From an uncultured Gemmatimonadota bacterium (GTDB lineage Bacteria; Gemmatimonadota; Gemmatimonadetes; Palauibacterales; Palauibacteraceae), in NCBI GenBank assembly GCA_964518305.1, contig CAZFDK010000002.1, forward strand, positions 44,392-108,391: 64,000 bases of DNA, given 5' to 3'. A model generated the notes under the pieces. The model had not been told where the DNA came from. It saw only the letters and a list, made by a program, of their open reading frames with translations, and ran no database searches. This document shows positions 31,250-45,263 of this stretch, piece after piece. How positions within the stretch are numbered: the first letter of the stretch is position 1; every line of letters starts with the position of its first letter. The translations under genes and the position numbers were made by a program.

Positions 31250-32590
31250 TCACGGCTGGACCTCCACGCTCACCTGCACCCTCACTCCCTCGTCCCCGTC
31301 GGCGACGAACCAGCTGGCCAGCGGACCCGCCCGGCTGGCGACCCGCATGCCGAAGCCGTAGGAGGGTCGCCAGTCCGAGGAGGAGACCTCGGACAGCCGA
31401 CGGGCCACCATGCCTTCCTCGAGGAACAGGAAGGCGCCGAGACGGACGCTCTCGCGCGAATCGCGCCACAGCTCGTACCGGTATTCGGCGACGCCGGCGG
31501 CGAGATCGTGGCCCCGGAAGCGGTAGTCCGTATAGGCCCGGGCTCCGAGCTCGTCGCCCAGGCCCGCCAGGTGCGTGAAGGGCACGCCCCGTCCGCCGTC
31601 GGACCGGTTGAACTCGAGGCGTCCGCGGAGGACCAGGCTCTGCCGCATATCGATCGGAAGGTAGCCGTCCCCCCGCAGGCGGATGCGGTGGAAATCGGCC
31701 TCCGTCCCGGTCACCCCGCGGAACAGGGTCGACTCCGCCCCCAGCTCGACGCCCCGGGTCTGGAACAGACGCCTCCGGGTGAAGTCGAGCGCCAGCGAAC
31801 CGCCGGCGCGGACGAACTCCTTCGTGTCGCCGAGTCCGAACAGCTGTTCGGACGTGTACCGGGTCGTGATGTCCGGAACGGCCGGGTCGCCGCCGTCGGC
31901 CGCCTGGTTCTCCTCGTATCCACCCCGGACCCCCAGCCGGATCCAGGACCGCCGCAGCAGACCGAGCTCCGCGTCGCCCCCCCACTGGTCCCACTGGTAG
32001 TCCACGGCGTCCGAAGCGGGCGACGTGGGGCCGACCCCCCAGAACCGGGGCTGTGCCCACCGTCGGAACCAGCCCCGGACGACGAACCGCTCGCCGCTCT
32101 CCGGCAGCTGGAGCCATGCCTCGTGGCGCTGTGATCCGCTCGACGCGTACGCCGACCGGAGGTGAAGGGGCGCCCAGCGGTTCAGGTGGACCTTCGCAGC
32201 CGGCCCGCTCCGGGGCCCGACGGAGCCGACGCCGGGCGAGAGCCCCCAGGCCCGGAGATCGCGATAGGCCACCCTCACCGGCGAGGGAGGCCCCTCTCGC
32301 CCCACCAGGCTAAGGACACTCTGGGTACCCTCCCCCAGGAGCCGGAGGGGGAAGGTGGCCACGGTCCACGGGAAGGTCACCACGTCCACCCAGTCGGTGG
32401 GGGGTTCGGAGGGAGGACGGGCCGCAGTGTCTCGATCCACCGACTGCGCGCGAGCCAGCCCGGCCGGGACCGCGAGGGTCAGGACGGTCGCCAGGACGAG
32501 CGCTCCGCTGAGGCCCGGTTGGCTCCGGCAGCCGGGCCAGCGGGCCGCGCCGCCCGTCCCGGTCGTCTCCCCGTCACTCCCATCAGTCAT
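31250..32590 (-). CDS. Outer-membrane beta-barrel protein (Omp85/D15-like)
   Basis: Signal peptide ..ALVLATVLTLAVPAGLARA-QS, then alternating beta-strand-like segments rich in aromatic residues and Gly to the C-terminus. The ATG at 32590 overlaps the upstream MFS stop by 8 nt. Confidence 0.45.
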   Translation of the reverse strand: MTDGSDGETTGTGGAARWPGCRSQPGLSGALVLATVLTLAVPAGLARAQSVDRDTAARPPSEPPTDWVDVVTFPWTVATFPLRLLGEGTQSVLSLVGREGPPSPVRVAYRDLRAWGLSPGVGSVGPRSGPAAKVHLNRWAPLHLRSAYASSGSQRHEAWLQLPESGERFVVRGWFRRWAQPRFWGVGPTSPASDAVDYQWDQWGGDAELGLLRRSWIRLGVRGGYEENQAADGGDPAVPDITTRYTSEQLFGLGDTKEFVRAGGSLALDFTRRRLFQTRGVELGAESTLFRGVTGTEADFHRIRLRGDGYLPIDMRQSLVLRGRLEFNRSDGGRGVPFTHLAGLGDELGARAYTDYRFRGHDLAAGVAEYRYELWRDSRESVRLGAFLFLEEGMVARRLSEVSSSDWRPSYGFGMRVASRAGPLASWFVADGDEGVRVQVSVEVQP

Positions 32591-34031
32591 CGCTCGAATC
32601 CTGCTCCTCCTGCTCCGGATCCGCCGCTCCCGCCCCGGCTCCTTCTCCGACGTGGTCTTCGTTCGTCTCGGCGGTCATCCCGTCGCTCCGAGCCTCGAAC
32701 TCCTTCCCCAGGTAGCGGACGACCAGTATCCAGCTGCCGATGACCAGCAGCGAGGCGAGCGAGAACCAGCGGACGTGGATCACGGTCAGTGCGCTCAGGG
32801 CCAGATTCAGCCCCACGGCCACCACCTTCCCGAACCGCTGCACGAACATGTCGATGAACGCCTTGGCCTTGTATTTGGCGTCCCGGGAGGTGGGGGTGTA
32901 GAGGGCCTCCTTCGCGGACTGGTTGATCGAATAGTTGAGCGCGTTGTCGCCCACCCGCATGAAGGAGGCGAGGGCGAGCGACGGAACGACCAGGAACCCG
33001 ACGGAGCCCAGCATGGCCACGGCGGGCAGGAACAGGAGCCCGGCCCCGACGCCGAGGTTCCGAAGCACGTAGCTCGTGCCGAACAGCTGGACCCCGATCG
33101 AGACCAGCCCCGTGATCTGACCGATCCGGCCGAAGAACGCGTCCTTGGCCGCCCCCCCGGTGATCTGCTGCTCGACGATCACGCCGAGCTGGAAGTTCAT
33201 GATGTTCGAGACGAGTTCGTAGAGCCCGATCACCGCCGTGATGCCCAGCAGGTACTTCGACGCCAGCACCAGCTTCGCCCCCTCGATGGCGGCCCCGGCG
33301 CCCGGCTCCTCCGCCACCTTCGACTCGTCGTCGCAGTCCTCTTCCTCCTCCGGGCAGCAGGGCTCGTCCCGCTCTTCCTCCTCTCCGCGTCGCTCCCGGG
33401 CCCGCGCGTCGATCCAGTAGGCCAGGAGCACGATCACGGCCACCGGCACGAGCAATCCGACCAGCAGCCAGGCGCGCCCCACGTCCTGCACGAGGCTCGT
33501 GACGACAGTCGCGCCCACGAAGCCCCCGACCACGCCTCCCAGCCCCACGATCCCGTACAGCCTCTCGGCCTCCTCGGACGTCGTGATGTCGTTCGAAAAG
33601 GCCCAGAAGGTGGCCACCATGACCGTCGTCCAGATGTCGCCCGTCACGTACAGGGCCCACACCAGGGGCTCCGACGGAGCATGGATCCGGGTGGCGAACA
33701 GGAGGAACAGGGCCCCGAAGGCCAGGCTGAAGACGAGTATCACTCGCTGCCGCGGCAGCTTCCGGACCAGGACGGTGAACCCCACCACGACCGCGTAGGC
33801 CACGACCATGTTCAGGACCTTGGCGACCTCCTCGGCCTGCGCCCCGCTGAGCTGCCATCCGAAGAGCACCACCGGATGGTTGGCGAAGTAGTCCAGAAGC
33901 AGGCCCCGCTTCATCGGCTTCAGGACCCAGAAGACGGCGATCACCAGGAAGAAGAAGAGCGCCAGGCCCAGGGCGCGGGGCCACTCCCCTCTCCGGATGT
34001 CGAAAAAACGCTCTTTCAGTCGCTCGAGCAT
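32583..34031 (-). CDS. Npt1/Npt2 (TLC ATP/ADP-translocase-like) family MFS transporter
   Basis: MLERLKERFFDIRRGEWPRALGLALFFFLVIAVFWVLKPMKRGL. About 12 predicted TM segments. The central loop is EEEERDEPCCPEEEEDCDDE. Confidence 0.6.
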   Translation of the reverse strand: MLERLKERFFDIRRGEWPRALGLALFFFLVIAVFWVLKPMKRGLLLDYFANHPVVLFGWQLSGAQAEEVAKVLNMVVAYAVVVGFTVLVRKLPRQRVILVFSLAFGALFLLFATRIHAPSEPLVWALYVTGDIWTTVMVATFWAFSNDITTSEEAERLYGIVGLGGVVGGFVGATVVTSLVQDVGRAWLLVGLLVPVAVIVLLAYWIDARARERRGEEEERDEPCCPEEEEDCDDESKVAEEPGAGAAIEGAKLVLASKYLLGITAVIGLYELVSNIMNFQLGVIVEQQITGGAAKDAFFGRIGQITGLVSIGVQLFGTSYVLRNLGVGAGLLFLPAVAMLGSVGFLVVPSLALASFMRVGDNALNYSINQSAKEALYTPTSRDAKYKAKAFIDMFVQRFGKVVAVGLNLALSALTVIHVRWFSLASLLVIGSWILVVRYLGKEFEARSDGMTAETNEDHVGEGAGAGAADPEQEEQDSSDD

Positions 34032-34337
34032 GTGATCGCCGTCGGGCTTCGTTCGGCAGTCGTCGTCTCCGCCACGTTCCGCGGGTCACGCCCGCCGTCG
34101 CGTCGCGGGCGTCGCCGTCGGACCGCCCCCAGAACCCGGCCCCCTCGGCAATCGTTCCTGGTGCTCGCAAGAAGCCCGACCCGGCGTCGCCGAGCGCGCC
34201 GGAACGATGGCTCGACGTCTTCGATTGGTGGGACGCCACGGGCCCGCCCGCCGAAGAAGGAAGCGGCGCCCCCATCGGGCGACGGCCCCGGCGCCCCGGA
34301 GCTCACCGATTCAGATCGCCCGTGCCACCTCGCTGCC

Positions 34338-35777
34338 ATGAGAGCGAAGCTCGTCAACCGCTGGCGGAGAATCCGATCCAGCTACTGGCTCATCCCGGCC
34401 CTCCTGACCCTCTCGGCCGTGGCCATGGCAGCTCTGGCTCACCAGGTGGATCAGTCCATCGCCGCCGGGCGCCTGAGCCTCGGTCTCCTCGCCTACGGTG
34501 GAGGCGCCTCGGGGGCGCGTGCGATTCTCAGCACGCTGGCGGGGTCCATGATCACGGTCGCGGGCGTGGCCTTCTCGACCACGATGGTGGCGCTCGTCCT
34601 GGCCTCCTCGGAGTTCGGACCTCGCCTCCTGGAGCACTTCATCCGCGACCGGGGAAATCAGGTGGTGCTGGGGAGCTTCATCTGCACCTTCCTGTACTGC
34701 GTGCTCGGGCTGCTCGCCGTGCGCGGGACCGACGCCGCCTTCGTCCCCCGCTTCACGGTCAACCTCGGCATCCTGCTGAGCGTGGTGAGCGTGGGCCTCT
34801 TCATCTACTTCATCCATCACGTGATCCAGCTCATCCAGGCACCCAACGTCGTGAGCCGGGTGGGACAGCGCCTGGACGCCTGGGTCGACGGGCTCTTCCC
34901 CGACCTGCACGAGCACGAGCTCGGCGCGGCGGCGCGGGCACCGGTCGGAGAGGCCCGGACGGGGGTCGCCTCGCCGGCGCGTCCCTCCGACCACCTGCCG
35001 GAGTGGTGCGGAGCCGGACGGAACGGGTCGCCGGAAGCCCCGAGCTCCCGCTCCCTCGAGGCGGACCGGAGCGGCTACCTGCAGACTCTGGATCACGACC
35101 ACCTCGTACAGGTGGCCGAGGGGCGGCACCTGGTGGTCGAGCTCCGGGTCCGGCCGGGGGACTTCCTCCGGCCCGGCGACGAACTGGCACTCCTCCACTG
35201 CGTCCGGATGCCGGACGACGACCCGCGGGACGAACTCGACCAGGCCTTCGTGCTCGGCGACCAGCGGACGCCGGCCCAGGATCCGGAGTTCGTCGTGGAT
35301 CAGCTCGTGGAGCTGGCCGTTCGCGCCCTCTCGTCCGGCACCAACGACCCGTATACGGCCATCAACTGCATCGATCGCCTCGGAGCAGCGCTGGGGCGCG
35401 TGGCACGCAGGCCCCCTCCCCCGGAGCGCGTCCGTGGCCCCGGCGGACGCATCCGTCTCCTCCGGGATCCCATCGACTTCCCGGAACTCGCCTGCGCCGC
35501 CCTCGATCCCATCCGCGAGTACGGCCGTGGACACTCGGCCGTACTGATCCGGCTCCTGGACACCGTCGGCGCGCTCTCCGGCCAGGCGCGGCGGCCCCCG
35601 GCGCTGTCCGAGCTCCGGTGGCACGCGGAGAAGATCGTCCGCTCGGGCCAGGAGGGGATCCCGGAGGAAACGGGGGTCGCCTCGCTCGAGAGCCGCTTCA
35701 GGCGGGTCCGGCAGCGCATTCGGGAGCGGGAGGAAGGGATCGAGGTGTCGAGTACGGGACCCGAGGCCGGAAAATAA
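34338..35777 (+). CDS. DUF2254-like membrane protein
   Basis: The N-terminus RRIRSSYWLIPALLTLSAVAMA is followed by 4 TM segments and a soluble C-terminal domain. ATG at 34338. Confidence 0.5.
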   Translation: MRAKLVNRWRRIRSSYWLIPALLTLSAVAMAALAHQVDQSIAAGRLSLGLLAYGGGASGARAILSTLAGSMITVAGVAFSTTMVALVLASSEFGPRLLEHFIRDRGNQVVLGSFICTFLYCVLGLLAVRGTDAAFVPRFTVNLGILLSVVSVGLFIYFIHHVIQLIQAPNVVSRVGQRLDAWVDGLFPDLHEHELGAAARAPVGEARTGVASPARPSDHLPEWCGAGRNGSPEAPSSRSLEADRSGYLQTLDHDHLVQVAEGRHLVVELRVRPGDFLRPGDELALLHCVRMPDDDPRDELDQAFVLGDQRTPAQDPEFVVDQLVELAVRALSSGTNDPYTAINCIDRLGAALGRVARRPPPPERVRGPGGRIRLLRDPIDFPELACAALDPIREYGRGHSAVLIRLLDTVGALSGQARRPPALSELRWHAEKIVRSGQEGIPEETGVASLESRFRRVRQRIREREEGIEVSSTGPEAGK

Positions 35778-36014
35778 TTCGGCCTCGGGGAGCAGCCCTC
35801 GACCGGGACGCGACGCGCTCGACGGCTCAGAACGCCGATCTGACGGGGCATTTCGGCCTCGCCGGGAACGTACGTATGACGATTGCAATTATTGAGACGA
35901 CGGCGGGAAACCGCCACGGGGGGTCACCCTCGTACGACTCGAGCCGGAGGCACCGAATCTTGTGGGCGTATGGTTCGACCTCCATCAACGGCGTGTGCTG
36001 CAGGGAGGCACTCG

Positions 36015-36365
36015 ATGGGACTGTCCTTTACTGATCGACAGCTCGACCTGATGAACATCCTCTGGGACGATGGCTCGGCCACCGTCCGCGAGGCCAAGGA
36101 GGCCCTGGACGAGGAGCTCGCCTACACGAGCGTTCTCACGGTCTTCCAGACGCTGGAGAAGAACGGACACGTTCGACACGAGCCCGAGGGCAAGGCCTAC
36201 CGCTACTATGCCACCGTGAGCCGCGAAGAAGCCGGTCGCGAGGCCGTCTCCTATCTCAAGCGTCGACTCTTCCAGGGCTCGGCCGAGGCGCTGACCGAGA
36301 CCCTGCGGGAGGAAACCCGGGAGACGCAGGTCGACGAGGAGGAGCCGACCGAGCTGGAGGTCTGA
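36015..36365 (+). CDS. BlaI/MecI/CopY-family transcriptional repressor
   Basis: LSFTDRQLDLMNILWDDGSATVREAKEAL..LAYTSVLTVFQTLEKNGHVRHEPEGKAYRYY. ATG at 36015 preceded by GGGAGG. Confidence 0.75.
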   Translation: MGLSFTDRQLDLMNILWDDGSATVREAKEALDEELAYTSVLTVFQTLEKNGHVRHEPEGKAYRYYATVSREEAGREAVSYLKRRLFQGSAEALTETLREETRETQVDEEEPTELEV

Positions 36366-36406: not shown

Positions 36407-38302
36407 TCAGCGTGCCCTGAAGATCACGATCCGGGCCCGGGCGCTGGCGGAGAGCGCGTTGTCGGCCTGGTCGGTGAGCCGCACCTCGAGCTCTGGAGTC
36501 GAGCCGCTGGAGGAGAGCGTGAAGTGCTTCCCGGGGCCGGGACGGACCTCGAAGTCCGTGCCTCCGTCGGTGAAGCCGGTCTCCACGGGGTTCAGCGGGT
36601 ACTCCCCGAACCGCCAGCCGGATCTGTTCGCCGCCAGCTCGCGGTACATGTCCCGCAGGTCCCAGGTCGGGAGAATCCGTTGGCCATCGGCGGCGTCCAC
36701 GTCGTCATCCACCGCCAACATCACGGCGAAGTCGGCCAGCAGGTCGTCGAAGCTCGCCCCGGTGACCTCCTCCACGTTCTCGATCCCGGTGCTGAGCCCG
36801 CCGTCGGCCTGGGCCAGGTCCCGGATGAAGCCCTCCTCCCCCGTGCTCGGCACCGCGCCCTCGCCCACCGACGCGTACTGATCCGCCAGCCAGCGGGCGA
36901 AGAGCCACCCGAAGCCCCGCATCTCCAGCGACTGCAGCCCATCGGGGTCCGAGGTGGCCAGCGCCCTGGTCGTCGGCACGCTGTCCATGAACGCCCCTGC
37001 GTTGAAGAAGTCGTTGAAGAGATAGGTATCGAACGTCTGTGAGCCGGAGCCGGCCGTCGCCTCGTAGGTAAGGTTCGAGCGTACGGAGGCCCCGTACGCG
37101 GCCAGGCCCACGACCTCCTCGGCCAGGTGAGAGAGGGCCTCGCTGAGCCACGTCGTCTCGAAGGGGCCGAAGCCGGTCGTGTTCTGCTTGATCACCCGGT
37201 TCGCGGCGTTGAGCAGGTGCTGGAGCTCGTGCGACGAGACGGAGAAGGCGTTGCGCTTCGCCCTTTCCGCCGAGGTGGGGGTGCCGTAGTCGCCGTTCGG
37301 GTCCGGGGAACGCAGGTACAGGAGCTCCGACTCGTTGGAGGCGGCGCACACCCTCTCATCCGAACCCGTCCCCTCGTCGTCTCCCGATTCAGCGAGGTCG
37401 TTCGGGACGAAGAAGCCGCCCACCCGCGTCCGTCCGTCGGCCGGATCGAGCTCGTTCACCTTCGGCGTGAACAGGATGTAGACGTGGTCATTGCCATCGA
37501 TGTCGGTGGGAGAGCCGAAGTAGGCGCTGTCCACCGGGACCACGAGCGTGTCGAAGGTGGCGGCGATCTGCTGAAAATCCGTGCTCGAGAAACCGCCGAG
37601 GCCACCCACGCTCGGCTCCGGCGCCGCCGTGTCCTGCACGATGATCGCCCGCTCGCCCACTTCCTTCACCTCGGCCGTCACGGTCCGGGCGGAGGCGGTG
37701 TCGCACGGGGTGTCGAAATCCTGCTGGGCCGCGAACCAGAACTGAATCCGATCTCCAGCGTCCGGGACCGTGTTGGTGGGTACCCTGGAGCTCAGGCGGA
37801 TGTCGCCGCCCGAGCTCACATCGGAGTCCGCGTGTCGCGTCGGGCTGATCCCGCGGCGGACGAGGAGGTCGCGGGAGCTCTCCCGGATCTTCCGGCGGAT
37901 CATCAGGTCCCGCGCCCGGGGCGGCAGGTCGACACCGGCGCCGGCGGCCCGCCGGCTCGACGAGACTGATCCGGAGCCCGAGCTCCCGTCGCCCCGGGTG
38001 AGCCGCATGGGGATCAGGCCGGGGGATCCCGCGTCGGCCGACTGAACGGCCAGACGGTACTCGCGTCCGCTGGAGGCGGAGGGAAGCCGAAGGGCCAGCA
38101 CCTCGCCGTCGGCGGTGAAGGTGGTCGACTCGCCGACGTTCAGCCCCACGTCCTGTACGGTGACGCTGCCCCCGCCGTCGCCGGGTTCCATCGGGTCCTG
38201 CCCGTCCCCGCCGCAGGCGAGAACCAGCGAGACGGTCGCACCGAGGATCACCGCGCCGAGTTCGGAGGGTCGGACGTGTCCGGTGCATGCGTTGGACGTC
38301 AC
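36407..38302 (-). CDS. Lipoprotein with an HExxH zinc-metallopeptidase motif
   Basis: Lipobox VSLVLACGG, then FSVSSHELQHLLNAANR with a downstream LSEALSHLAEE. Confidence 0.45.
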   Translation of the reverse strand: MTSNACTGHVRPSELGAVILGATVSLVLACGGDGQDPMEPGDGGGSVTVQDVGLNVGESTTFTADGEVLALRLPSASSGREYRLAVQSADAGSPGLIPMRLTRGDGSSGSGSVSSSRRAAGAGVDLPPRARDLMIRRKIRESSRDLLVRRGISPTRHADSDVSSGGDIRLSSRVPTNTVPDAGDRIQFWFAAQQDFDTPCDTASARTVTAEVKEVGERAIIVQDTAAPEPSVGGLGGFSSTDFQQIAATFDTLVVPVDSAYFGSPTDIDGNDHVYILFTPKVNELDPADGRTRVGGFFVPNDLAESGDDEGTGSDERVCAASNESELLYLRSPDPNGDYGTPTSAERAKRNAFSVSSHELQHLLNAANRVIKQNTTGFGPFETTWLSEALSHLAEEVVGLAAYGASVRSNLTYEATAGSGSQTFDTYLFNDFFNAGAFMDSVPTTRALATSDPDGLQSLEMRGFGWLFARWLADQYASVGEGAVPSTGEEGFIRDLAQADGGLSTGIENVEEVTGASFDDLLADFAVMLAVDDDVDAADGQRILPTWDLRDMYRELAANRSGWRFGEYPLNPVETGFTDGGTDFEVRPGPGKHFTLSSSGSTPELEVRLTDQADNALSASARARIVIFRAR

Positions 38303-38521
38303 GGTGTCCCTCTTCGTTCCGTGTCGTGGAGATGTTCCAGCGTCGGCGGTCGTTCAGCCGTCGAGGCGGATGGCCGCTCCGGCGGGCCGGTCAAGAGACG
38401 ATCGGACCGCGACGAGCGACACATCGCGTCCGGTCAAGATACACGGGCGGTCCCGGGACGGGTCCCGCGATCCGCAGGGCAGCACCTGGCAGCACCTCCA
38501 GACGGGGCTCTCTCGGAGGCC

Positions 38522-39730
38522 TCAGCTCGCGGAGAGCCGTGCTTCCAGGGCCGTCGCCGGGAACGGATCGGCGAAGAAGTTCCCCTGTCCCAGGTCGCAC
38601 CCCAGCTCGCGGAGCGTCTCGTACTGCTCGTGGCTCTCCACCGCCTCGGCCGTGACCTGCAGCCCGAAACCCTCGCTCATCCTGACGATGGCCTCCACGG
38701 TAGCCCGGTCGGGCTCGCTCTTCTGCATCCTGGCCACGAAAGACCCGTCGATCTTGAGTCCCCCCAGCTTCAGGCGGGCGAGCTGCCCCAGCGACACGTA
38801 GCCGGTGCCGAAGTCGTCGATCACCACGTCCGCCCCGAGCCGCCGGACCTGGACCAGCTGCGTCCCGGCTTCGTCCAGCGTCTCCTCGCTCACCTCGACC
38901 TGCAGGTCCTCTCCGTCCATGTCGTGTTCGGCCAGAAGCGAACGGATCCGCTCCACGAAGCCGCGCTGGCGGCACTGGTCGGTGCTCAGGTTCACGGCCA
39001 CGAAGAAGTCGGAGCTGCCGGGGAACTGTTCCCGCCACCGGCCGAACTGCCGGAAGGCCTCCTCCATGGCCCAGTTGCTCACCGGCACCAGGAGGCCCGC
39101 GCTCTCGGCGAAGCTCACGAACTCCCCGGCATTCAGCAGCCCCCGTCGCGGGTGGTCCCACCGCACCAGGGCCTCCACCCCCACGGTCCGGCGTCCCTCC
39201 AGGGAGACGACCGGCTGGAAGTAGAGGACCAGCTGTCCCTCCTCGACCGCGCGCTGCAGGTCCCTGCGGCGGGCCTCCTCCAGCCCTCGACCTCCCGGCC
39301 CTCTGCCGGTGCGGTGGAACAGCTCCGCCATCATCCCGCTGCCCAGGCTGACGACGATGAGCACCGTCGTGGCGCCGCCGTAGACCCACCAGTCCACGCT
39401 CCCCTGGACGACGTTGCCGACGACCACCTCGGTGACCGTGAGGACGGCCATGCCCCCGGCCAGCGCCCTGACGGCTCCCGTCCAGCCGTGATAGTAGGAA
39501 AGCAGAAACGCCGGGATCAAGGCCAGGATCCAGAGGATTCCGGCGTACGTCGCCCCCGTCGGCGGGCGAAGAAGGGCCGCCACCACGGCGACGGCCAGGG
39601 CGAAGACGCTGATGGCGATCACTCGCGGGGGGATGTCCTGCGCCGGCCTCTCGCCGAGCTCGTCCAGGCTCGAGAGCAGCAGGGCCCGCACCGGGCCCGG
39701 GTCCTCTTCCGCTGCCTGCTCCGCCGTCAC
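38522..39730 (-). CDS. Membrane-anchored EAL-domain c-di-GMP phosphodiesterase
   Basis: N-terminal TM segments, then YFQPVVSL..VEALVRW, AVNLS, VIDDFGTGY, LKIDGSF, TAEAVES and GQGNFF. Confidence 0.8.
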   Translation of the reverse strand: MTAEQAAEEDPGPVRALLLSSLDELGERPAQDIPPRVIAISVFALAVAVVAALLRPPTGATYAGILWILALIPAFLLSYYHGWTGAVRALAGGMAVLTVTEVVVGNVVQGSVDWWVYGGATTVLIVVSLGSGMMAELFHRTGRGPGGRGLEEARRRDLQRAVEEGQLVLYFQPVVSLEGRRTVGVEALVRWDHPRRGLLNAGEFVSFAESAGLLVPVSNWAMEEAFRQFGRWREQFPGSSDFFVAVNLSTDQCRQRGFVERIRSLLAEHDMDGEDLQVEVSEETLDEAGTQLVQVRRLGADVVIDDFGTGYVSLGQLARLKLGGLKIDGSFVARMQKSEPDRATVEAIVRMSEGFGLQVTAEAVESHEQYETLRELGCDLGQGNFFADPFPATALEARLSAS

Positions 39731-39756
39731 GGCTCCCCCCCGGCGACGGCTACTCC

Positions 39757-39797
39757 CGTATAGATTAACATGGTCATAATAAAGAAAGGATAGATGC
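39757..39797. promoter_or_regulatory. AT-rich divergent promoter region (EAL gene / YaiO-like gene)
   Basis: GTATAGATTAACATGGTCATAATAAAGAAAGGATAGATG stands out in a GC-rich background. Confidence 0.3.
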
Positions 39798-39940
39798 GAC
39801 TTGCCGGACGGGACAGGCGCGGGGGCGCCGTCCCGTTGGTTCTACGGGGCGCTTTCCACAGATTGCGGCTGGCATTCGACACCGCGGGCGGGGACGCCGG
39901 CCGCGGGGATCCCGCCGACCGCGCGCCGGAGGAAGCCTCC

Positions 39941-40753
39941 ATGAGTCCGTCGGACCACCCACAGCGGTGGGTACGGAGGGGAGCGACGCCCCCCGGGCTC
40001 CACGCCGTGGCCGCCCTCCTCCTGCTCCTGCTGGCAGCGCCCGGGGCCCGAGCCCAGGACAGCCCGTGGACGGGACGGCTCTTCCTCCAGGCCCGGTCGG
40101 TGGAGGACCGCGAGGCGTGGCTGGTCCTCCGCCAGCAGGCGGCCAAAAGCTTCTCGGGCGGGGGAATGCTGCAGGTGGGCCTCACGCAGACGCGTCGATT
40201 CGGAGACTGGGACGCCAGCGTCGGGGCCAGCGGGACGCTCCGTCCCGGCGGCGGCGCGTACCTGTCGCTCGACGCCCGGATCACCCCCGAGGCCGACGTC
40301 ATCGACGACGCCCGGTTCGGCGCCCGGATGTCGCTGCCGCTGGGCGAGCTCGTTCCCTCCGTGGGCTACCGGATCAAGCTCTTCGGGGACGACCCCGTCC
40401 ACGCCGTGAGCCCCCGACTGAACTGGTACCGGGGGTCGTGGCTCCTCTCGGGCGAGGTCCGGCTGGTCCGGAGCGCCCTCGAGACCACCAGCATCGCCGC
40501 CATCGGGCGCGTCACCCGGCGCATCCCGGGGGGCTGGAGCGTCCGGATCGGGGTGGCCCGGGGCGAGGAGGACTTCCGTGTGGGGCGGCCGCCGGGCCAG
40601 AGCCTTCGCACTCTCACGTCCCGCTCCCTGTCGGCAGGGGTCGAGCGTCGCCTGACCGACGGCTGGACGGTACAGCTCGACCTCGCCGGCGTCGACACGG
40701 ACCAGGGCCTGGACCGCTTCGGGGCGTCCGTGACCCTCGCCCGGACGTTCTGA
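39941..40753 (+). CDS. YaiO-family-like outer-membrane beta-barrel protein
   Basis: Signal peptide AALLLLLLAAPGARA-QD. About 250 aa. The segment ARFGARMSLPLGELVPSVGYRIKLFGDDPVHAVSPRLNWYRG parallels E. coli YaiO as I recall it (..LLPKTLFTTGYRYTKYYDDVEVDAW..). Ends ..VTLARTF. Confidence 0.5.
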   Translation: MSPSDHPQRWVRRGATPPGLHAVAALLLLLLAAPGARAQDSPWTGRLFLQARSVEDREAWLVLRQQAAKSFSGGGMLQVGLTQTRRFGDWDASVGASGTLRPGGGAYLSLDARITPEADVIDDARFGARMSLPLGELVPSVGYRIKLFGDDPVHAVSPRLNWYRGSWLLSGEVRLVRSALETTSIAAIGRVTRRIPGGWSVRIGVARGEEDFRVGRPPGQSLRTLTSRSLSAGVERRLTDGWTVQLDLAGVDTDQGLDRFGASVTLARTF

Positions 40754-40759
40754 GCCGTC

Positions 40760-41827
40760 ATGGCCGATATTCTCCGTGCGCTCCTGCTGGTCGAGGCCGG
40801 GATCCTGGCCCTCCTCTTCGTGGTCCTGTTGGGGTGGCCGCTGGTGGTGCGCGCGGTCGAAAGCCGGCGCGCCCGGCAGCGACGGGGGCTTCTCTCCACC
40901 GTGTGGAATTATCGGAGGGCGGACGCGCCCGGGGACGTGCTCGGCGCCCTGGGGGATGCGAGCCCGAAGGCCCTCCTGTGGTCACTGGAAGCGATGCAGG
41001 ACGACCGCCTGGAGCCCGAACACCTGGACCTGGACCGCCTCGTACGTGGCACCCCCGCCTTCGGCCGCCTGGAGCGGGCGGCCCGTTCCTCGTTCTGGTG
41101 GCGGCGACAGACGGCGGCCCAGCTGCTGGCCCACGTGGGCCACCCGGAATCGGACCGATCCCTGCTGATCTCCCTCCTCCGTGATCCGCATCCCGGCGTG
41201 TCCTCGGCCGCCCTGCTCACCGCCCGGGAGCTCGGATGGCCCGGGCTCGTGGAGCCGCTCCTCGACCTGGCGGCCGGAGGCGGGCCCGCGACCCGCGGCA
41301 AGGAGAGCCTGCTCCGGGAGACGCTCTCGGCGCTCGAGGCCGACGTCGTGCCGCCGCTCCGGGACCGGCTCCGGGCGAGCGAGGACCGGTCCGAGGAACT
41401 CACGCTCCTGCGGATCGCGGGCCAGCTCGCCGACGAGGAGCTCCTGCCGTACCTGATCGATCGTCTCCGCCACGGCGGGCTCGAACTCCGGACCCGGGCG
41501 GCCAAGACGTTGCGAGAAGCCGGCCTGTCCGGGGCCGCCGACGCCCTGCGCGACGCGCTGGAGGACCCGGCCTGGCAGGTGCGCACCCAGGCCGCTCGAG
41601 CCCTCGGGGAGTTGGGGGCGGAGGAGGCCGCCGAAGACCTCGGCCGCTCCCTCACCGACCCCAGCTGGTGGGTCCGGCTGCGGGCCGCCCTGGCGCTGAG
41701 ACGGCTCGGGGAGCCGGGAACACGGATCCTCGGAAGCGTCGAGCCCGAGGAGGACCAGTACGCGGCCGACATGGCCCGGTACGTTCTGGGCCTCGAGGAC
41801 GCGGCGCTCCGGGAGTACGCCCGATGA
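40760..41827 (+). CDS. Membrane-anchored HEAT-repeat protein
   Basis: N-terminal TM LLLVEAGILALLFVVLLGWPLVV, then repeated D(P)..VR..AA.AL units (DPAWQVRTQAARALGELG, DPSWWVRLRAALALRRLG). Confidence 0.65.
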   Translation: MADILRALLLVEAGILALLFVVLLGWPLVVRAVESRRARQRRGLLSTVWNYRRADAPGDVLGALGDASPKALLWSLEAMQDDRLEPEHLDLDRLVRGTPAFGRLERAARSSFWWRRQTAAQLLAHVGHPESDRSLLISLLRDPHPGVSSAALLTARELGWPGLVEPLLDLAAGGGPATRGKESLLRETLSALEADVVPPLRDRLRASEDRSEELTLLRIAGQLADEELLPYLIDRLRHGGLELRTRAAKTLREAGLSGAADALRDALEDPAWQVRTQAARALGELGAEEAAEDLGRSLTDPSWWVRLRAALALRRLGEPGTRILGSVEPEEDQYAADMARYVLGLEDAALREYAR

Positions 41828-41888
41828 GACGGAGCGGCCCGGCGACGTCTCCGGGGACCCGGGTGGGAGGACCGGGAGCGCGAGGAGC

Positions 41889-43316
41889 GTGATCGACTTC
41901 CTCGTCCGGGCGGTGGGGTTCTGGAACCCGTTGCTCCTCTGGTACTTCGGGCTCCTGAACCTCTTCTACGGGGTCCTCTTCGGCTTCTCGGTCTTCGAGA
42001 CCTGGAAGCACTGGGTGCTCTCGTCCCGGCTCGACGCTACCGAGCGCCTCCCGGACGAGGCCTTCCCCCCCGTTTCGGTCCTGGTGCCTGCCTACGACGA
42101 GGAGCGGGTCATCGTCGACTCCGTGGAGGCCCTGCTCGACCTCGATTACCCCCAGCAGCAGGTCGTGGTGGTCAACGATGCGTCCACCGACGACACCCTG
42201 GGAAGGCTGAAGGACCGCTTCGACCTCTACTCGGTTCCGCCAGCCTTTCAAGCCGTCCTGGACACCGCCCCCGTTCGGGACTTCTACCGATCTCGGACGG
42301 ACCCGGAGCTGCTGGTCGTGGACAAGGACGACGGCGGCGGCAAGGCAGGCGCCCTCAACGTGGCGCTGAACGCGTGCCGGTACCCCTACTGCGTCACCGT
42401 GGACGCCGACACGGTGATCGAGCCCGCGGCCATCCGACGGATGGCGCGGGCCTTCCTGCTGAGCGAGAGGCGCGTGGTGGGCACGGGGGGAAGCATCCGG
42501 GTGGCGAACGGCGTCTATTTCGACGGCGGCACGCCGGTGCAGCCCACGGTGCCCGACAACTTGCTCGCCGGCCTCCAGGTGCCCGAGTACTTTCGGGCTT
42601 TCCTGTTCGGCCGGCTCGGCTGGAACCAGATGGGCGGCAACCTGCTGATCTCGGGCGCCTTCGGCCTGTACGAGAAGCAATTGCTGATCGAGGCCGGGGG
42701 CTTCGAGGAGGGCTCGGTCACCGAGGACCTCGAGCTCACGGTGAGCATTCACCGCCACATGCAGGAGAAGGGGGAGCCCTACGACCTCCCCTTCGTGCCC
42801 GATCCGGTGGCGTGGACCGAGGTGCCCGAGTCCCTCTCGGTGCTCGGCAACCAGCGGGAGCGCTGGCACAGGGGGCTGCTGTCCAGCGTCTTCCGTCACC
42901 TGCGCATGTTCGGAAACCCCCGGTACGGCCTGACCGGCCTGGTGGCCTTCCCCTACTACATGCTGGGCGAGATGCTGGCTCCGGTCATGGAAGTCGTGGG
43001 GATCGGGGTGGTCGCGGCGGGCCTGTGGCTCGACGTCCTCTCGGCGGAGTACGCTCTCCTGTTCTTCGGACTCGCGTACGGCTACCAGATGCTGCTCACC
43101 ATGGCCAGCGTGGTCCTGGAACAGCTCACCTTCCGGGTCTACAGCGACGTGCGCCAGTACCTGAAGCTGCTGCTGCTTGCCGTGATCGAGCCCTTCGGCT
43201 ACCGCCAGCTCACCACGTGGTGGCGGCTCAAGGCCTTCGGGACGTTCCTCCGCGACGTGGGAGGGTGGGGCGAGATGGAGCGAAGCGGCTTCGGGGGGAA
43301 CGCGAACAGCGAGTAA
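41889..43316 (+). CDS. Processive family-2 glycosyltransferase (PgaC/IcaA/cellulose-synthase-like)
   Basis: VSVLVPAYDEE, VVVNDASTDDT, TVDADT, SVTEDLELT and QRERWHRG (QxxRW), flanked by TM segments. GTG start at 41889. Confidence 0.8.
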   Translation: MIDFLVRAVGFWNPLLLWYFGLLNLFYGVLFGFSVFETWKHWVLSSRLDATERLPDEAFPPVSVLVPAYDEERVIVDSVEALLDLDYPQQQVVVVNDASTDDTLGRLKDRFDLYSVPPAFQAVLDTAPVRDFYRSRTDPELLVVDKDDGGGKAGALNVALNACRYPYCVTVDADTVIEPAAIRRMARAFLLSERRVVGTGGSIRVANGVYFDGGTPVQPTVPDNLLAGLQVPEYFRAFLFGRLGWNQMGGNLLISGAFGLYEKQLLIEAGGFEEGSVTEDLELTVSIHRHMQEKGEPYDLPFVPDPVAWTEVPESLSVLGNQRERWHRGLLSSVFRHLRMFGNPRYGLTGLVAFPYYMLGEMLAPVMEVVGIGVVAAGLWLDVLSAEYALLFFGLAYGYQMLLTMASVVLEQLTFRVYSDVRQYLKLLLLAVIEPFGYRQLTTWWRLKAFGTFLRDVGGWGEMERSGFGGNANSE

Positions 43317-43449
43317 TCCTCGCATCAGCACCCGGATAGAAGCAGCGGGTCGCGCTCAGAAGTAGATGGAGAGCCGCGTGTGGCCCAGGTCGCCGCAGGG
43401 GCCGTACTCGCTCCGGGGGCGGGACACGGGCCCGGCGGTCGATACCGGG

Positions 43450-44691
43450 TCACCCGTCTCCGCCGGAGCGGGTCGAGGACACTGGCACTTCGGGCGAACC
43501 GGAAAAAAGATGCGTCTCGGATGCGGCCCGCACGCCGTTCCGCCCCGCCTCCTTGGCCCGGTAGAGCGCCCGGTCCGCCATCTGAATGAGACCGTCGGCG
43601 GTCCCGGCGTGCTCCGGGTAGCCCGCCACGCCCAGGCTCACGGTGAGGCATCCACGGGGAAGTACATCGGCGCCCTCGAACACCGCCTCCTCCACGGCGC
43701 GCCGGAGACGCTCGGCCGCCTCGACCCCCTCCCGCCAGGAGGTGTCGGGCAGCACCAGCGTGAACTCCTCGCCGCCGTACCGGGCGACGACGTCGGCTTC
43801 GCGGGCCTCGTCGCGGCACACCCAAGCCAGCTTCTCCAGGACCGCGTCTCCGGCCACGTGGCCGTGGCTGTCGTTGTACTGCTTGAAGTAGTCGAGATCC
43901 AGCATGACCACCGAGCACACCCCGCCGTACCGCTCCAGGGCCTCCACCTCCGAGCGGAGCCTCTCCATGAGGAATCGGCGGTTGTAGAGGCCGGTCAGCG
44001 GGTCGGTCACCGCCTCCCGCTCGAGCTCTTTCCGCAGGGTCCTCTTTTCCTCGCGCGACCGGCGAAGGCGGCGAAAGACGAGGCCCGCGAACCCGTGCAC
44101 GCCGACGAGAGCTCCGATGCGGATGGCCTCCCTGGCGGGCTCGATGGCCAGTCCCTGGCGCGCGTGGAGGCCGATGGTCCCCACGTAAATCGCCGTCATC
44201 ACGGTTCCCAGATACATGACGCCCCGGAGGCCGAGCAAACCCGCCCCGAACAGGAGAGCCACGAACCAGGCCACGACCACGACGTCCCGGGCCTCGGGGA
44301 CCACGAGCAGGTAGCCCCCGAGCAGGAGGGCCGCCCCCACCAGGGGCACATAGATGAAGTCCGGGTCCCAGGAGACCGTCTCCTCCCAACCCGCGTGGAC
44401 CACCCACCACATGAGCCCTACTTCCAGGGCGGTGCCCCCGCCCAGCCCGGCGATCGCCCGCCAGGAGGCGTCCGTGACGGCGGCCGAGCGGTACACGACC
44501 AGCGCCGCCAGCAGCAGCGCGAACCCCAGCCCGCTGAGCAGCACCCCGCGCTCCTTGATCTTCCGCTTCTCGGCCGGCTGCAGCGATCGATCGGTGCCGG
44601 GGAAGCGCGACTCTTGGTGGTTCATGGGGGAGGACTTCGCTCCGAGGAATGGCGGCGGCCGGGAACGTCGCTCCCGTTCGCTTTCACGCAC
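43450..44691 (-). CDS. Membrane-anchored GGDEF diguanylate cyclase
   Basis: DPLTGLYNRR..VVMLDLDYFKQYND..READVVARYGGEEF (GGEEF preceded by an RxxD I-site). An alternative start lies at 44625. Confidence 0.85.
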   Translation of the reverse strand: MRESERERRSRPPPFLGAKSSPMNHQESRFPGTDRSLQPAEKRKIKERGVLLSGLGFALLLAALVVYRSAAVTDASWRAIAGLGGGTALEVGLMWWVVHAGWEETVSWDPDFIYVPLVGAALLLGGYLLVVPEARDVVVVAWFVALLFGAGLLGLRGVMYLGTVMTAIYVGTIGLHARQGLAIEPAREAIRIGALVGVHGFAGLVFRRLRRSREEKRTLRKELEREAVTDPLTGLYNRRFLMERLRSEVEALERYGGVCSVVMLDLDYFKQYNDSHGHVAGDAVLEKLAWVCRDEAREADVVARYGGEEFTLVLPDTSWREGVEAAERLRRAVEEAVFEGADVLPRGCLTVSLGVAGYPEHAGTADGLIQMADRALYRAKEAGRNGVRAASETHLFSGSPEVPVSSTRSGGDG

Positions 44692-45263
44692 CGCTACGAG
44701 CGTCCAGCCTACTGTTCTTCACGTCGCGTACCACGGACGCCGTGTCGATTACCCCGGTGATCAAGGAGGTTCCCGAGGATGACGTGTCGTCGCGCCGAAT
44801 CGGGTTGTCGCATTATTCACCGTCCGTTGCACCCTGCCACAGGGATCCGCGCGGTAAGGCGGTCGGCTTCCCGGCGACGGCCCCGGCGCAGGCCGGCGAC
44901 GAGGGCGTGGGACCCGGCGGCTCGGCCGGCGCACGGGGAAGCCGGATCGAGGCGACGGCCCGGTAACCCTCTCCCTGAGGGGAGACGTGAAGATGCCCGT
45001 GGCCGACGTCGACCAGGACGACCACGCTGTCCTTCCTGTCCTTCAGGGTCGGACTGGAACCGGCCTCGTCCACGGAAGCGACGCGCCCCTCGAACTCGGC
45101 CGCATCGGCCGAGTCGTCAGCGGCCTACCGTTGACGATGGGCGCGGACCGGGCCCACGGTCGACCTCTCGCATCCGACGAGCAGCACCGAAGCGCCGAGG
45201 AGAGGACGGGAAGAAGGGCGGAGCGGGGTGGACGGTCCCGCTCCCGACGATACCGCTCCCGTC

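Follow-up and report, generated by a model that had tools for sequence, protein, structure and literature searches.

The locus described here, positions 38522-44691 of a 64,000-nucleotide stretch of DNA from an uncultured Gemmatimonadota bacterium (contig CAZFDK010000002.1 of assembly GCA_964518305.1; the whole stretch is called the window), has at its core three co-directional genes that encode a YaiO-family outer membrane barrel, a single-pass membrane protein made of HEAT repeats and a membrane glycosyltransferase of family 2 (GT2). With a probability of roughly 0.65, we interpret it as a self-contained, synthase-dependent exopolysaccharide (EPS) module that is built around a two-subunit inner membrane synthase, exports its product through the YaiO barrel and takes input from cyclic di-GMP (c-di-GMP). 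Gene content, sequence motifs, folds, topology and synteny form the observed basis of this interpretation, and from them we infer secretion of a polymer under post-translational control by c-di-GMP. The HEAT partner of the synthase is absent from the literature searched and bears no curated family name, yet it is widespread across phyla; the same literature contains no description of a HEAT-partnered synthase or of a Gemmatimonadota version of one. The features of the locus are as follows.

38522-39730, minus strand: predicted membrane EAL phosphodiesterase of 402 aa (PF00563, 226 bits), divergent from the barrel-HEAT-GT2 operon.
39731-39940, no strand assigned: divergent intergenic region between the EAL and barrel genes, with an AT-rich island and a Shine-Dalgarno sequence, as read from the sequence.
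39794-40753, plus strand: open reading frame (ORF) of the YaiO-family barrel, with a likely start at ATG 39941 that gives a 270-aa precursor (TIGR04390, PF19413).
40760-41827, plus strand: single-pass membrane HEAT-repeat protein of 355 aa (HEAT_2, 94 bits).
41889-43316, plus strand: predicted membrane GT2 synthase of 475 aa (PF13641, 78.6 bits; PF00535, 64.9 bits).
43450-44691, minus strand: predicted membrane GGDEF diguanylate cyclase of 413 aa (PF00990, 145 bits; TIGR00254, 179 bits), convergent with the operon.

The five ORFs were recovered at the coordinates given in an original prediction made from the letters of the DNA, and their third-codon-position GC (GC3) of 0.88-0.93 is evidence that they are genuine genes. 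The window has an even GC content of ~70%, and the locus does not stand out from it in composition. The gaps of 6 nt between the barrel and HEAT genes (40754-40759) and of 61 nt between the HEAT and GT2 genes (41828-41888) also agree with that prediction, as does the position of every motif that it quoted. The closest named relative of the HEAT protein comes from Candidatus Palauibacterales (Gemmatimonadota) and is 81% identical.

The strongest evidence for a two-subunit synthase is the conservation of the HEAT-GT2 gene pair. Relatives of the GT2 were collected from one genome per species, the 80 best loci were kept, and metagenomic loci were added to give 87 related loci; genes in these loci were called with a simple ORF and GC3 heuristic, making all neighbor counts approximate, and loci from related organisms do not represent independent events. 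According to a HEAT profile HMM, 81 of the 87 loci have a co-directional family member whose end meets the start of the GT2. Two further loci, both from Bacteroidota (L080 and L083), have a more divergent HEAT protein at the same position, as recognized by Pfam, and three are cut at a contig edge, such that HEAT is found directly upstream of GT2 in ~83 of 84 assessable loci. The reverse check gave the same answer, as a GT2 gene lay downstream on every contig examined for a true HEAT-family member. The boundary of the family falls between P0063 (E 9e-17), the weakest member checked, and rejected matches at E about 1e-7; the latter were weak matches in Pseudomonas and Paraburkholderia, which proved to be unrelated proteins in ABC-transporter operons. 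The pair occurs in Gemmatimonadota, Acidimicrobiia, Solirubrobacterales, Pseudarthrobacter, Streptomyces, Patulibacter, Acidobacteriota and Elusimicrobia, in alpha-, gamma- and deltaproteobacterial metagenome-assembled genomes (MAGs), in Cloacimonadota, Neomarinimicrobiota and Bacteroidota, and in two Halobacteriales MAGs; Flavobacterium, Belliella, Pseudarthrobacter, Streptomyces and Patulibacter are culturable carriers. Among these, L083 comes from Flavobacterium aquariorum, L046 from Pseudarthrobacter sp. L19 and L065 from Streptomyces luteogriseus. Comparative synteny, which the original prediction had proposed as a check, thus places the trio in close relatives and across phyla. Since its adjacency to GT2 is near-invariant, the HEAT protein is strongly supported as a predicted co-subunit of the synthase, in line with the partner role first proposed for it. 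That the HEAT protein also occurs in archaea and in the monoderm Actinomycetota ties that role to the synthase and not to outer membrane export.

The GT2 clade is large, with upwards of 5,500 clusters (E <= 1e-30). A comparable figure for the HEAT family is not usable, as giant repetitive HEAT proteins dominated the results of a search of 1.84 billion representatives with the HEAT profile; these results included no natural HEAT-GT2 fusion. The search did turn up longer relatives of ~1,210 aa. Four of the proteins retrieved (P0304, P0311, P0349 and P0359; ~1,060-1,230 aa) begin with a TM helix and HEAT region of ~330 aa like that of the window protein and continue as HEAT repeats to their end, and are not GT2 fusions.

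The GT2 itself has the characteristics of a processive enzyme, as had been claimed from its motifs. D97, D172-A-D174, T278-E-D and Q322-RERW are all invariant across a 40-sequence alignment. In an AlphaFold model made from 40 homologues (pLDDT 85.7), a single N-terminal transmembrane (TM) helix is followed by a cytoplasmic GT-A domain (residues ~60-340) and by C-terminal TM or interface helices, the long ones of which span 344-380, 386-414, 421-433 and 438-455 and lead into a flexible tail; clear TM helices are few by both sequence and model, and the C-terminus beyond the last helix amounts to only ~20 residues in the model. When this model was compared with the PDB using Foldseek, the top matches were the hyaluronan synthases (HAS) of Chlorella virus and Xenopus (8sne, E 1.5e-15), and further top matches included E. 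coli and Rhodobacter BcsA and fungal and oomycete chitin synthases (Chs1, 8k3r, at rank 20, E 1.4e-12). TM-scores to HAS, BcsA and chitin synthase structures were 0.5-0.66 at sequence identities of 13-18%, and the polyprenyl-phosphate mannosyltransferase PcManGT appeared at rank 14. Motifs and modeled fold support a membrane-embedded, processive-type synthase with a synthase-translocase fold.

Family models place the enzyme less precisely. Its best NCBIfam match, PgaC_IcaA (TIGR03937), scored 114.7 bits, far under the cutoff of 422.3, the CelA model gave 45 bits (cutoff 699), and weaker matches to NodC, HpnB/HpnI and MdoH were all far under their cutoffs. Indeed, neither the GT2 nor the HEAT protein attains the cutoff of any curated NCBIfam family, and the source annotations are correspondingly generic ("glycosyltransferase family 2" and "HEAT repeat domain-containing protein"). 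Affinity to PgaC/IcaA and to hyaluronan synthases, together with the deacetylase genes found in some loci (see below), makes the predicted product lean towards a hexosamine-containing polymer. The GT2 tail (EPFGYRQ...WR...WG...R.GF) consists of residues that are invariant or near-invariant in the 40-sequence alignment; it would be cytoplasmic and is possibly the counterpart of the gating loop in related synthases.

The HEAT protein is likewise a membrane protein with a single TM segment, as originally described. Its AlphaFold model (pLDDT 92.1) is all-alpha, with a long N-terminal helix (residues 2-49) that runs into a continuous solenoid. Among 42 HEAT-family members, Lys and Arg residues number on average 0.5 ahead of the TM helix and 5.6 within the 20 positions that follow, and because of this enrichment we assign the solenoid of all 42 members to the cytoplasm, that is, to the same side of the membrane as the catalytic domain and tail of the GT2. 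Fold and PDB sequence searches returned only designed alpha-Rep proteins and importin-like solenoids and gave no functional lead, and the invariant residues of the protein are mostly generic HEAT consensus. By its model the fold is a generic protein-binding scaffold and nothing more specific, and the protein is best read, on present sequence comparisons, as an obligate co-subunit that would also serve as a dock for regulators.

The third member of the operon is a true YaiO-family protein, which bears out its initial description as a YaiO-like barrel. It scores 90.1 bits on TIGR04390 (cutoff 32; residues 58-271) and 25.3 bits on PF19413 (cutoff 23.9), has a signal peptide that ends at ARA|QD and a C-terminal Phe; a PDB sequence search with the barrel gave no matches. 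The likely start at ATG 39941 is preceded by GGAGG (39928-39932), 8 nt upstream. Orthologs in the related loci L086, L087 and L088 score 71-98 bits on TIGR04390, and E. coli YaiO scores 182 bits. No TPR or other periplasmic scaffold was found in the barrel, in which the model match begins 17 residues past the signal peptide, or in its flanks; the absence of TPR repeats is shared with E. coli YaiO. A profile made from the L086, L087 and L088 barrels and from TPR-YaiO proteins detected a co-oriented YaiO gene next to the pair in 20 of 88 loci, of which 19 were assigned to diderm phyla. These loci include seven from Bacteroidota, two from Rhodothermales, two from Neomarinimicrobiota, the Gemmatimonadota locus L047 and single Bdellovibrio-like, gammaproteobacterial, Rhodospirillales and Acidobacteriaceae MAGs. 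Most of the neighboring barrels are fused to N-terminal TPR repeats (L083 and L026, with 157-160 bits on PF19413, and also L069), and other Gemmatimonadota loci, such as L001, have large TPR proteins in place of the barrel. Two candidate leads on YaiO were discarded: NfrA, considered as a YaiO-domain protein, fails to match the YaiO model, and an apparent co-occurrence of YaiO and glycosyltransferases in the literature came from a strain name only.

Other genes beside the pair suggest lineage-specific modification of its product, which would fit a secreted polymer. A CE4 deacetylase gene, confirmed by Pfam, follows GT2 in L062 (9379-11241, plus strand). It belongs to a cluster (C24) found in five loci (L052, L060, L062, L069 and L070) at varying positions and strands, with those in L069 and L070 located upstream in the opposite orientation; the Pfam scan covered the L062 member of this cluster. 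In addition, a membrane gene of the "Sulfatase" family (LtaS/BcsG-like) directly follows GT2 in the Bacteroidota loci L073 (8919-10946) and L075 (9253-11640). From the YaiO match of the barrel and the YaiO genes that recur beside the pair, we predict that the polymer leaves the cell through the YaiO barrel.

The original prediction placed the operon in a bracket of two c-di-GMP enzymes, and the two halves of that bracket fared differently. The EAL protein consists of a 4-TM N-terminal domain (residues ~36-138) and an EAL domain (156-389) whose catalytic set, already described as intact, is complete (E186-A-L, N247, D305-D-F-G, K326, E362 and Q382), and it is predicted to be an active phosphodiesterase. 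The arrangement of a minus-strand EAL gene beside plus-strand barrel, HEAT and GT2 genes is kept in L088, L091, L086 and L087, all four of the related loci with a visible upstream region, in which the HEAT proteins are 84%, about 58%, 56% and 46% identical, respectively, to that of the window. The five EAL proteins are 49-92% identical, with invariant catalytic residues and many invariant columns in the four-helix membrane domain, and in L086 and L087 the block is retained although the genes around it are completely different. The GGDEF protein has the I-site RxxD motif noted before (READ, 297-300, five residues upstream of GGEEF, 306-310) together with VVARY, and is a predicted active diguanylate cyclase with an I-site. 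Its gene is missing even in relatives whose GT2 is 82-84% identical, and is thus a locus-specific neighbor and no conserved member of the module. With EAL kept and GGDEF replaced in relatives, the bracket is half conserved and half local. The N-terminal membrane domains of the two enzymes are unrelated, which rules out a shared sensor domain.

The intergenic region that separates the EAL gene from the operon contains an AT-rich island (GTATAGATTAACATGGTCATAATAAAGAAAGGATAGATG, at about 39758-39796) that is likely a shared promoter or operator region, a function we assign solely because of its AT-richness in a 70% GC genome; a sigma-70 consensus scan made no call in this region, the island included. 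An Rfam scan of 38000-45200 (7.2 kb, E <= 1) detected no c-di-GMP riboswitch, its sole match being a chance-level lncRNA. The EAL gene is followed, in its own direction of transcription, by a gene that is perhaps co-transcribed with it (36407-38302, minus strand) and encodes a 631-aa putative lipoprotein with a lipobox-like N-terminus (LVLAC), an HExxH motif (HELQH) and no Pfam match; a 61%-identical gene occupies this position in L091 and one of the same size in L088, and none is found there in L086 or L087.

Elsewhere in the family the predominant regulatory neighbor is a different one. Of 55 loci, 30 have a gene for a REC protein immediately before HEAT; the product of the gene at this position carries Hpt in 13 loci and GGDEF in 9. 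The architecture Hpt-(REC)-GGDEF-REC occurs in Actinomycetota, Cloacimonadota and Neomarinimicrobiota, and Hpt-REC, from which GGDEF has been lost, occurs in Gemmatimonadales (L013 and L018); loci with upstream regulators include L001, L013, L018, L020, L024, L026, L029 and L044. The REC-GGDEF proteins encoded immediately before HEAT in L026 and L044 have an intact GGDEF or GGEEF motif, and in L076 an intact GGDEF protein with no REC match is encoded immediately after GT2, so that c-di-GMP enzymes accompany the pair in three or more different arrangements among distant phyla. Pfam searches of the upstream regulators found only Hpt, REC and GGDEF domains and no DNA-binding domain, indicating that these regulators probably act on proteins and not on DNA. 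The adjacent HEAT-GT2 complex would be their obvious target, and their family, with or without GGDEF, looks like a dedicated phosphorelay regulator of the synthase. Overall, a link between the module and c-di-GMP is partly supported as real, and it is not universal.

These observations can be combined into the following model. The GT2 would polymerize a nucleotide-sugar, probably of a hexosamine or hexose, at its cytoplasmic GT-A site and thread the growing chain through the membrane in the manner of the cellulose, hyaluronan, chitin and poly-N-acetylglucosamine (PNAG) synthases. The HEAT protein would act as its obligate partner, with its single TM helix packed on the TM-poor synthase and its solenoid placed beside the catalytic domain and conserved tail as a docking or regulatory subunit, analogous to PgaD or IcaD by role and not by ancestry. 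The TPR-less YaiO barrel would then take the polymer across the outer membrane. In the Palauibacterales lineage, the dedicated, divergent membrane EAL protein may lower c-di-GMP and so keep output down, and in this genome the neighboring GGEEF cyclase may supply the signal; that signal might be sensed at a site formed jointly by GT2 and HEAT, like that of PgaCD, by the EAL protein if it doubles as a trigger enzyme, or by a receptor encoded elsewhere. A bolder version of the model, which is possible and which we put forward tentatively, holds that the HEAT solenoid represents a new type of regulatory subunit, obligate with GT2, that signals to the C-terminal tail, and that YaiO is an EPS porin; the signals that pass through HEAT would then differ by lineage, being the c-di-GMP level (here set by EAL) or a phosphorylated Hpt-REC protein.

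Several points weigh against the module as we have drawn it. The physical HEAT-GT2 complex is a prediction from gene order, the barrel is small (~230 mature residues), and no paper in the literature searched assigns a function or a part in polysaccharide export to YaiO; one review states that the structure of YaiO could not be modeled well. The convergent GGDEF gene is absent in L086, L087, L091 and L092, where other genes take its place, most family loci have neither a GGDEF nor an EAL gene beside the HEAT-GT2 pair, and the GGDEF motif of the regulators in L024, L029, L031, L049 and L053 is degenerate, suggesting that control by c-di-GMP may be lineage-specific or indirect. Finally, the domain searches that had been proposed as a check (Pfam and NCBIfam, E <= 0.01) detected neither PilZ nor MshEN nor any other domain of a known c-di-GMP receptor type in the GT2 and HEAT proteins, which agrees with the PilZ-free C-terminus first reported for the GT2, and the remaining three proteins of the locus yielded no such domain either; a composite site of the PgaCD type is not recognizable from sequence, and such a search is blind to it.

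The lack of any other receptor domain at the locus is one reason to consider, with the original prediction, that the HEAT protein, alone or with GT2, is the c-di-GMP receptor that replaces PilZ, PgaD or MshEN and switches the synthase on upon binding. The cytoplasmic position of the HEAT domain beside the catalytic domain would suit such a function, as would the stable linkage of the EAL gene in this lineage and the intact GGDEF proteins adjacent to the pair in L026, L044 and L076, and PgaC and PgaD reportedly bind c-di-GMP jointly with no recognizable receptor domain. We nevertheless consider this unlikely, if the least so of the three alternatives discussed here. The HEAT protein is equally invariant beside the GGDEF-free Hpt-REC proteins of L013 and L018, beside the degenerate GGDEF proteins of L024, L029 and L049, and in Bacteroidota and Haloarchaea, groups in which, to our knowledge, c-di-GMP signaling is rare or absent, so its conserved role is more general than c-di-GMP sensing. 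Its invariant residues are mostly those of any HEAT repeat, the fold search offered designed and importin-like solenoids only, and we know of no HEAT or ARM c-di-GMP receptor.

At the other extreme, the c-di-GMP genes could be mere neighbors of a module under transcriptional or other control, with the EAL protein serving the broader cellular c-di-GMP pool. The poor conservation of the GGDEF gene, the failure to find a receptor domain or riboswitch and the prevalence in the family of a phosphorelay regulator that is no c-di-GMP enzyme all point this way, and the EAL gene may belong to a transcription unit with the downstream HExxH lipoprotein gene that is conserved in closer relatives. We judge this improbable, since the EAL gene stays divergent beside the barrel in L086 and L087 despite their otherwise different flanks and since c-di-GMP enzymes have joined the pair repeatedly, in the several arrangements described above. 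Least probable of all, and in our estimate very unlikely, is a GT2 that makes a glycolipid, a polyprenyl-phosphate sugar, a periplasmic glucan or NodC-like chito-oligosaccharides next to a barrel unrelated to export. The rank of PcManGT in the fold search, the weak NodC, HpnB/HpnI and MdoH matches and the scarcity of clear TM helices would be explained by such an enzyme, but those family matches are all far under cutoff, the QxxRW and TED motifs and C-terminal TM or interface helices are features of processive synthases, which also rank first by fold, and barrel, TPR, deacetylase and sulfatase-family genes recur beside the pair. A secretion module with a HEAT-partnered synthase and an input from c-di-GMP in this lineage accounts for these neighbors, and it is the interpretation we retain.

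Synthase-dependent systems (cellulose, PNAG, alginate, Pel and Nfr) are central to biofilm biology, and each informs how a membrane synthase is switched. A large GT2 clade that is almost invariably accompanied by a HEAT membrane partner represents an unstudied class of such partners, and the occurrence of the pair in culturable organisms makes the idea directly testable. If the bolder version of the model is correct, it would provide the first function for the orphan YaiO barrel family, including an uncharacterized outer membrane protein of E. coli K-12, and would define a widespread, unnamed EPS family in more than ten phyla, archaea among them. The wiring of the same core to a phosphorelay or to c-di-GMP enzymes, depending on lineage, would offer a natural comparison of the signals that control one synthase.

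Several other genes and ORFs lie in this part of the window. A 482-aa membrane protein (32583-34031, minus strand) has matches to the TLC family of ATP/ADP transporters (PF03219, 86.6 bits) and also to MFS_1; a TLC-type gene is present in the relative L088 as well, and the family is unusual for a free-living bacterium. A BlaI/Penicillinase_R-type repressor (35883-36365, plus strand; 75 bits) and an Omp85-superfamily protein (31250-32590, minus strand; 33.6 bits) have no link to the EPS module; two BlaI-type repressor genes occur in each of L088 and L091, and in L091 they are accompanied by an M56 peptidase gene in the vicinity. Very long ORFs (<= 1,140 aa), among them 32355-35777 on the plus strand and 34311-35888 on the minus strand, are largely high-GC artifacts, as they fail the GC3 coding filter and overlap GC3-supported genes on the opposite strand, and raw ORF lists of the window therefore need caution.

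Among characterized systems, the module has most in common with Pga and Ica. It shares with them a membrane GT2 of ~440-480 aa with the D, DxD, TED and QxxRW motifs and a membrane partner, which in Pga and Ica is a small protein required for activity, and it shares with Pga an outer membrane porin and a c-di-GMP control that would involve no recognizable receptor domain. Nevertheless, the GT2 shares just 23% identity with E. coli PgaC across 290 aa and falls under the PgaC_IcaA cutoff, a HEAT solenoid of 355 aa with a single TM helix takes the place of the small, two-TM PgaD or IcaD as its partner, and its porin is a TPR-less YaiO barrel in place of the TPR porin PgaA; in the window there is no PgaD, PgaB-type deacetylase or PgaA. 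Class I HAS, BcsA and the chitin synthases have the same catalytic motif set and synthase-translocase architecture and differ in that the window GT2 has fewer TM helices and, by synteny, a separate HEAT subunit; relative to BcsA, it also lacks PilZ, and a BcsB partner is absent. A functional parallel to the HEAT protein, and not a homolog, is found in yeast, where Chs3 is activated by Chs4/Skt5, a membrane-anchored solenoid of Sel1 repeats.

The E. coli yaiO-yaiX-yaiP-yaiS cluster resembles the locus in that a YaiO barrel gene lies beside a membrane GT2 gene and sugar-modifying enzymes, a resemblance that favors a part for YaiO barrels in polysaccharide export. The proximity of yaiO to the GT2 gene yaiP had been stated in the original prediction and was verified, with an IS2-disrupted yaiX between the two. 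The parallel is loose, as the window GT2 is 26% identical to YaiP over 241 aa, the two barrels are related at the HMM level only, and this cryptic cluster has no HEAT gene. The NfrB-NfrA-YbcH system of E. coli, a c-di-GMP-activated system for a ManNAc polymer (PMC8669469), likewise combines a minimal synthase and porin with local c-di-GMP enzymes and has a glycosyltransferase with DxD, TED and QxxRW. NfrB, however, senses c-di-GMP through a C-terminal MshEN domain that the window GT2 lacks, its similarity to that GT2 is negligible (BLASTP E 0.001, confined to the N-terminal glycosyltransferase segment), and NfrA is a 990-aa TPR porin, in contrast to the YaiO-type barrel of the window. The module would work like Pga, Ica, Nfr and Bcs, yet it stands outside each of these families as they are currently defined.

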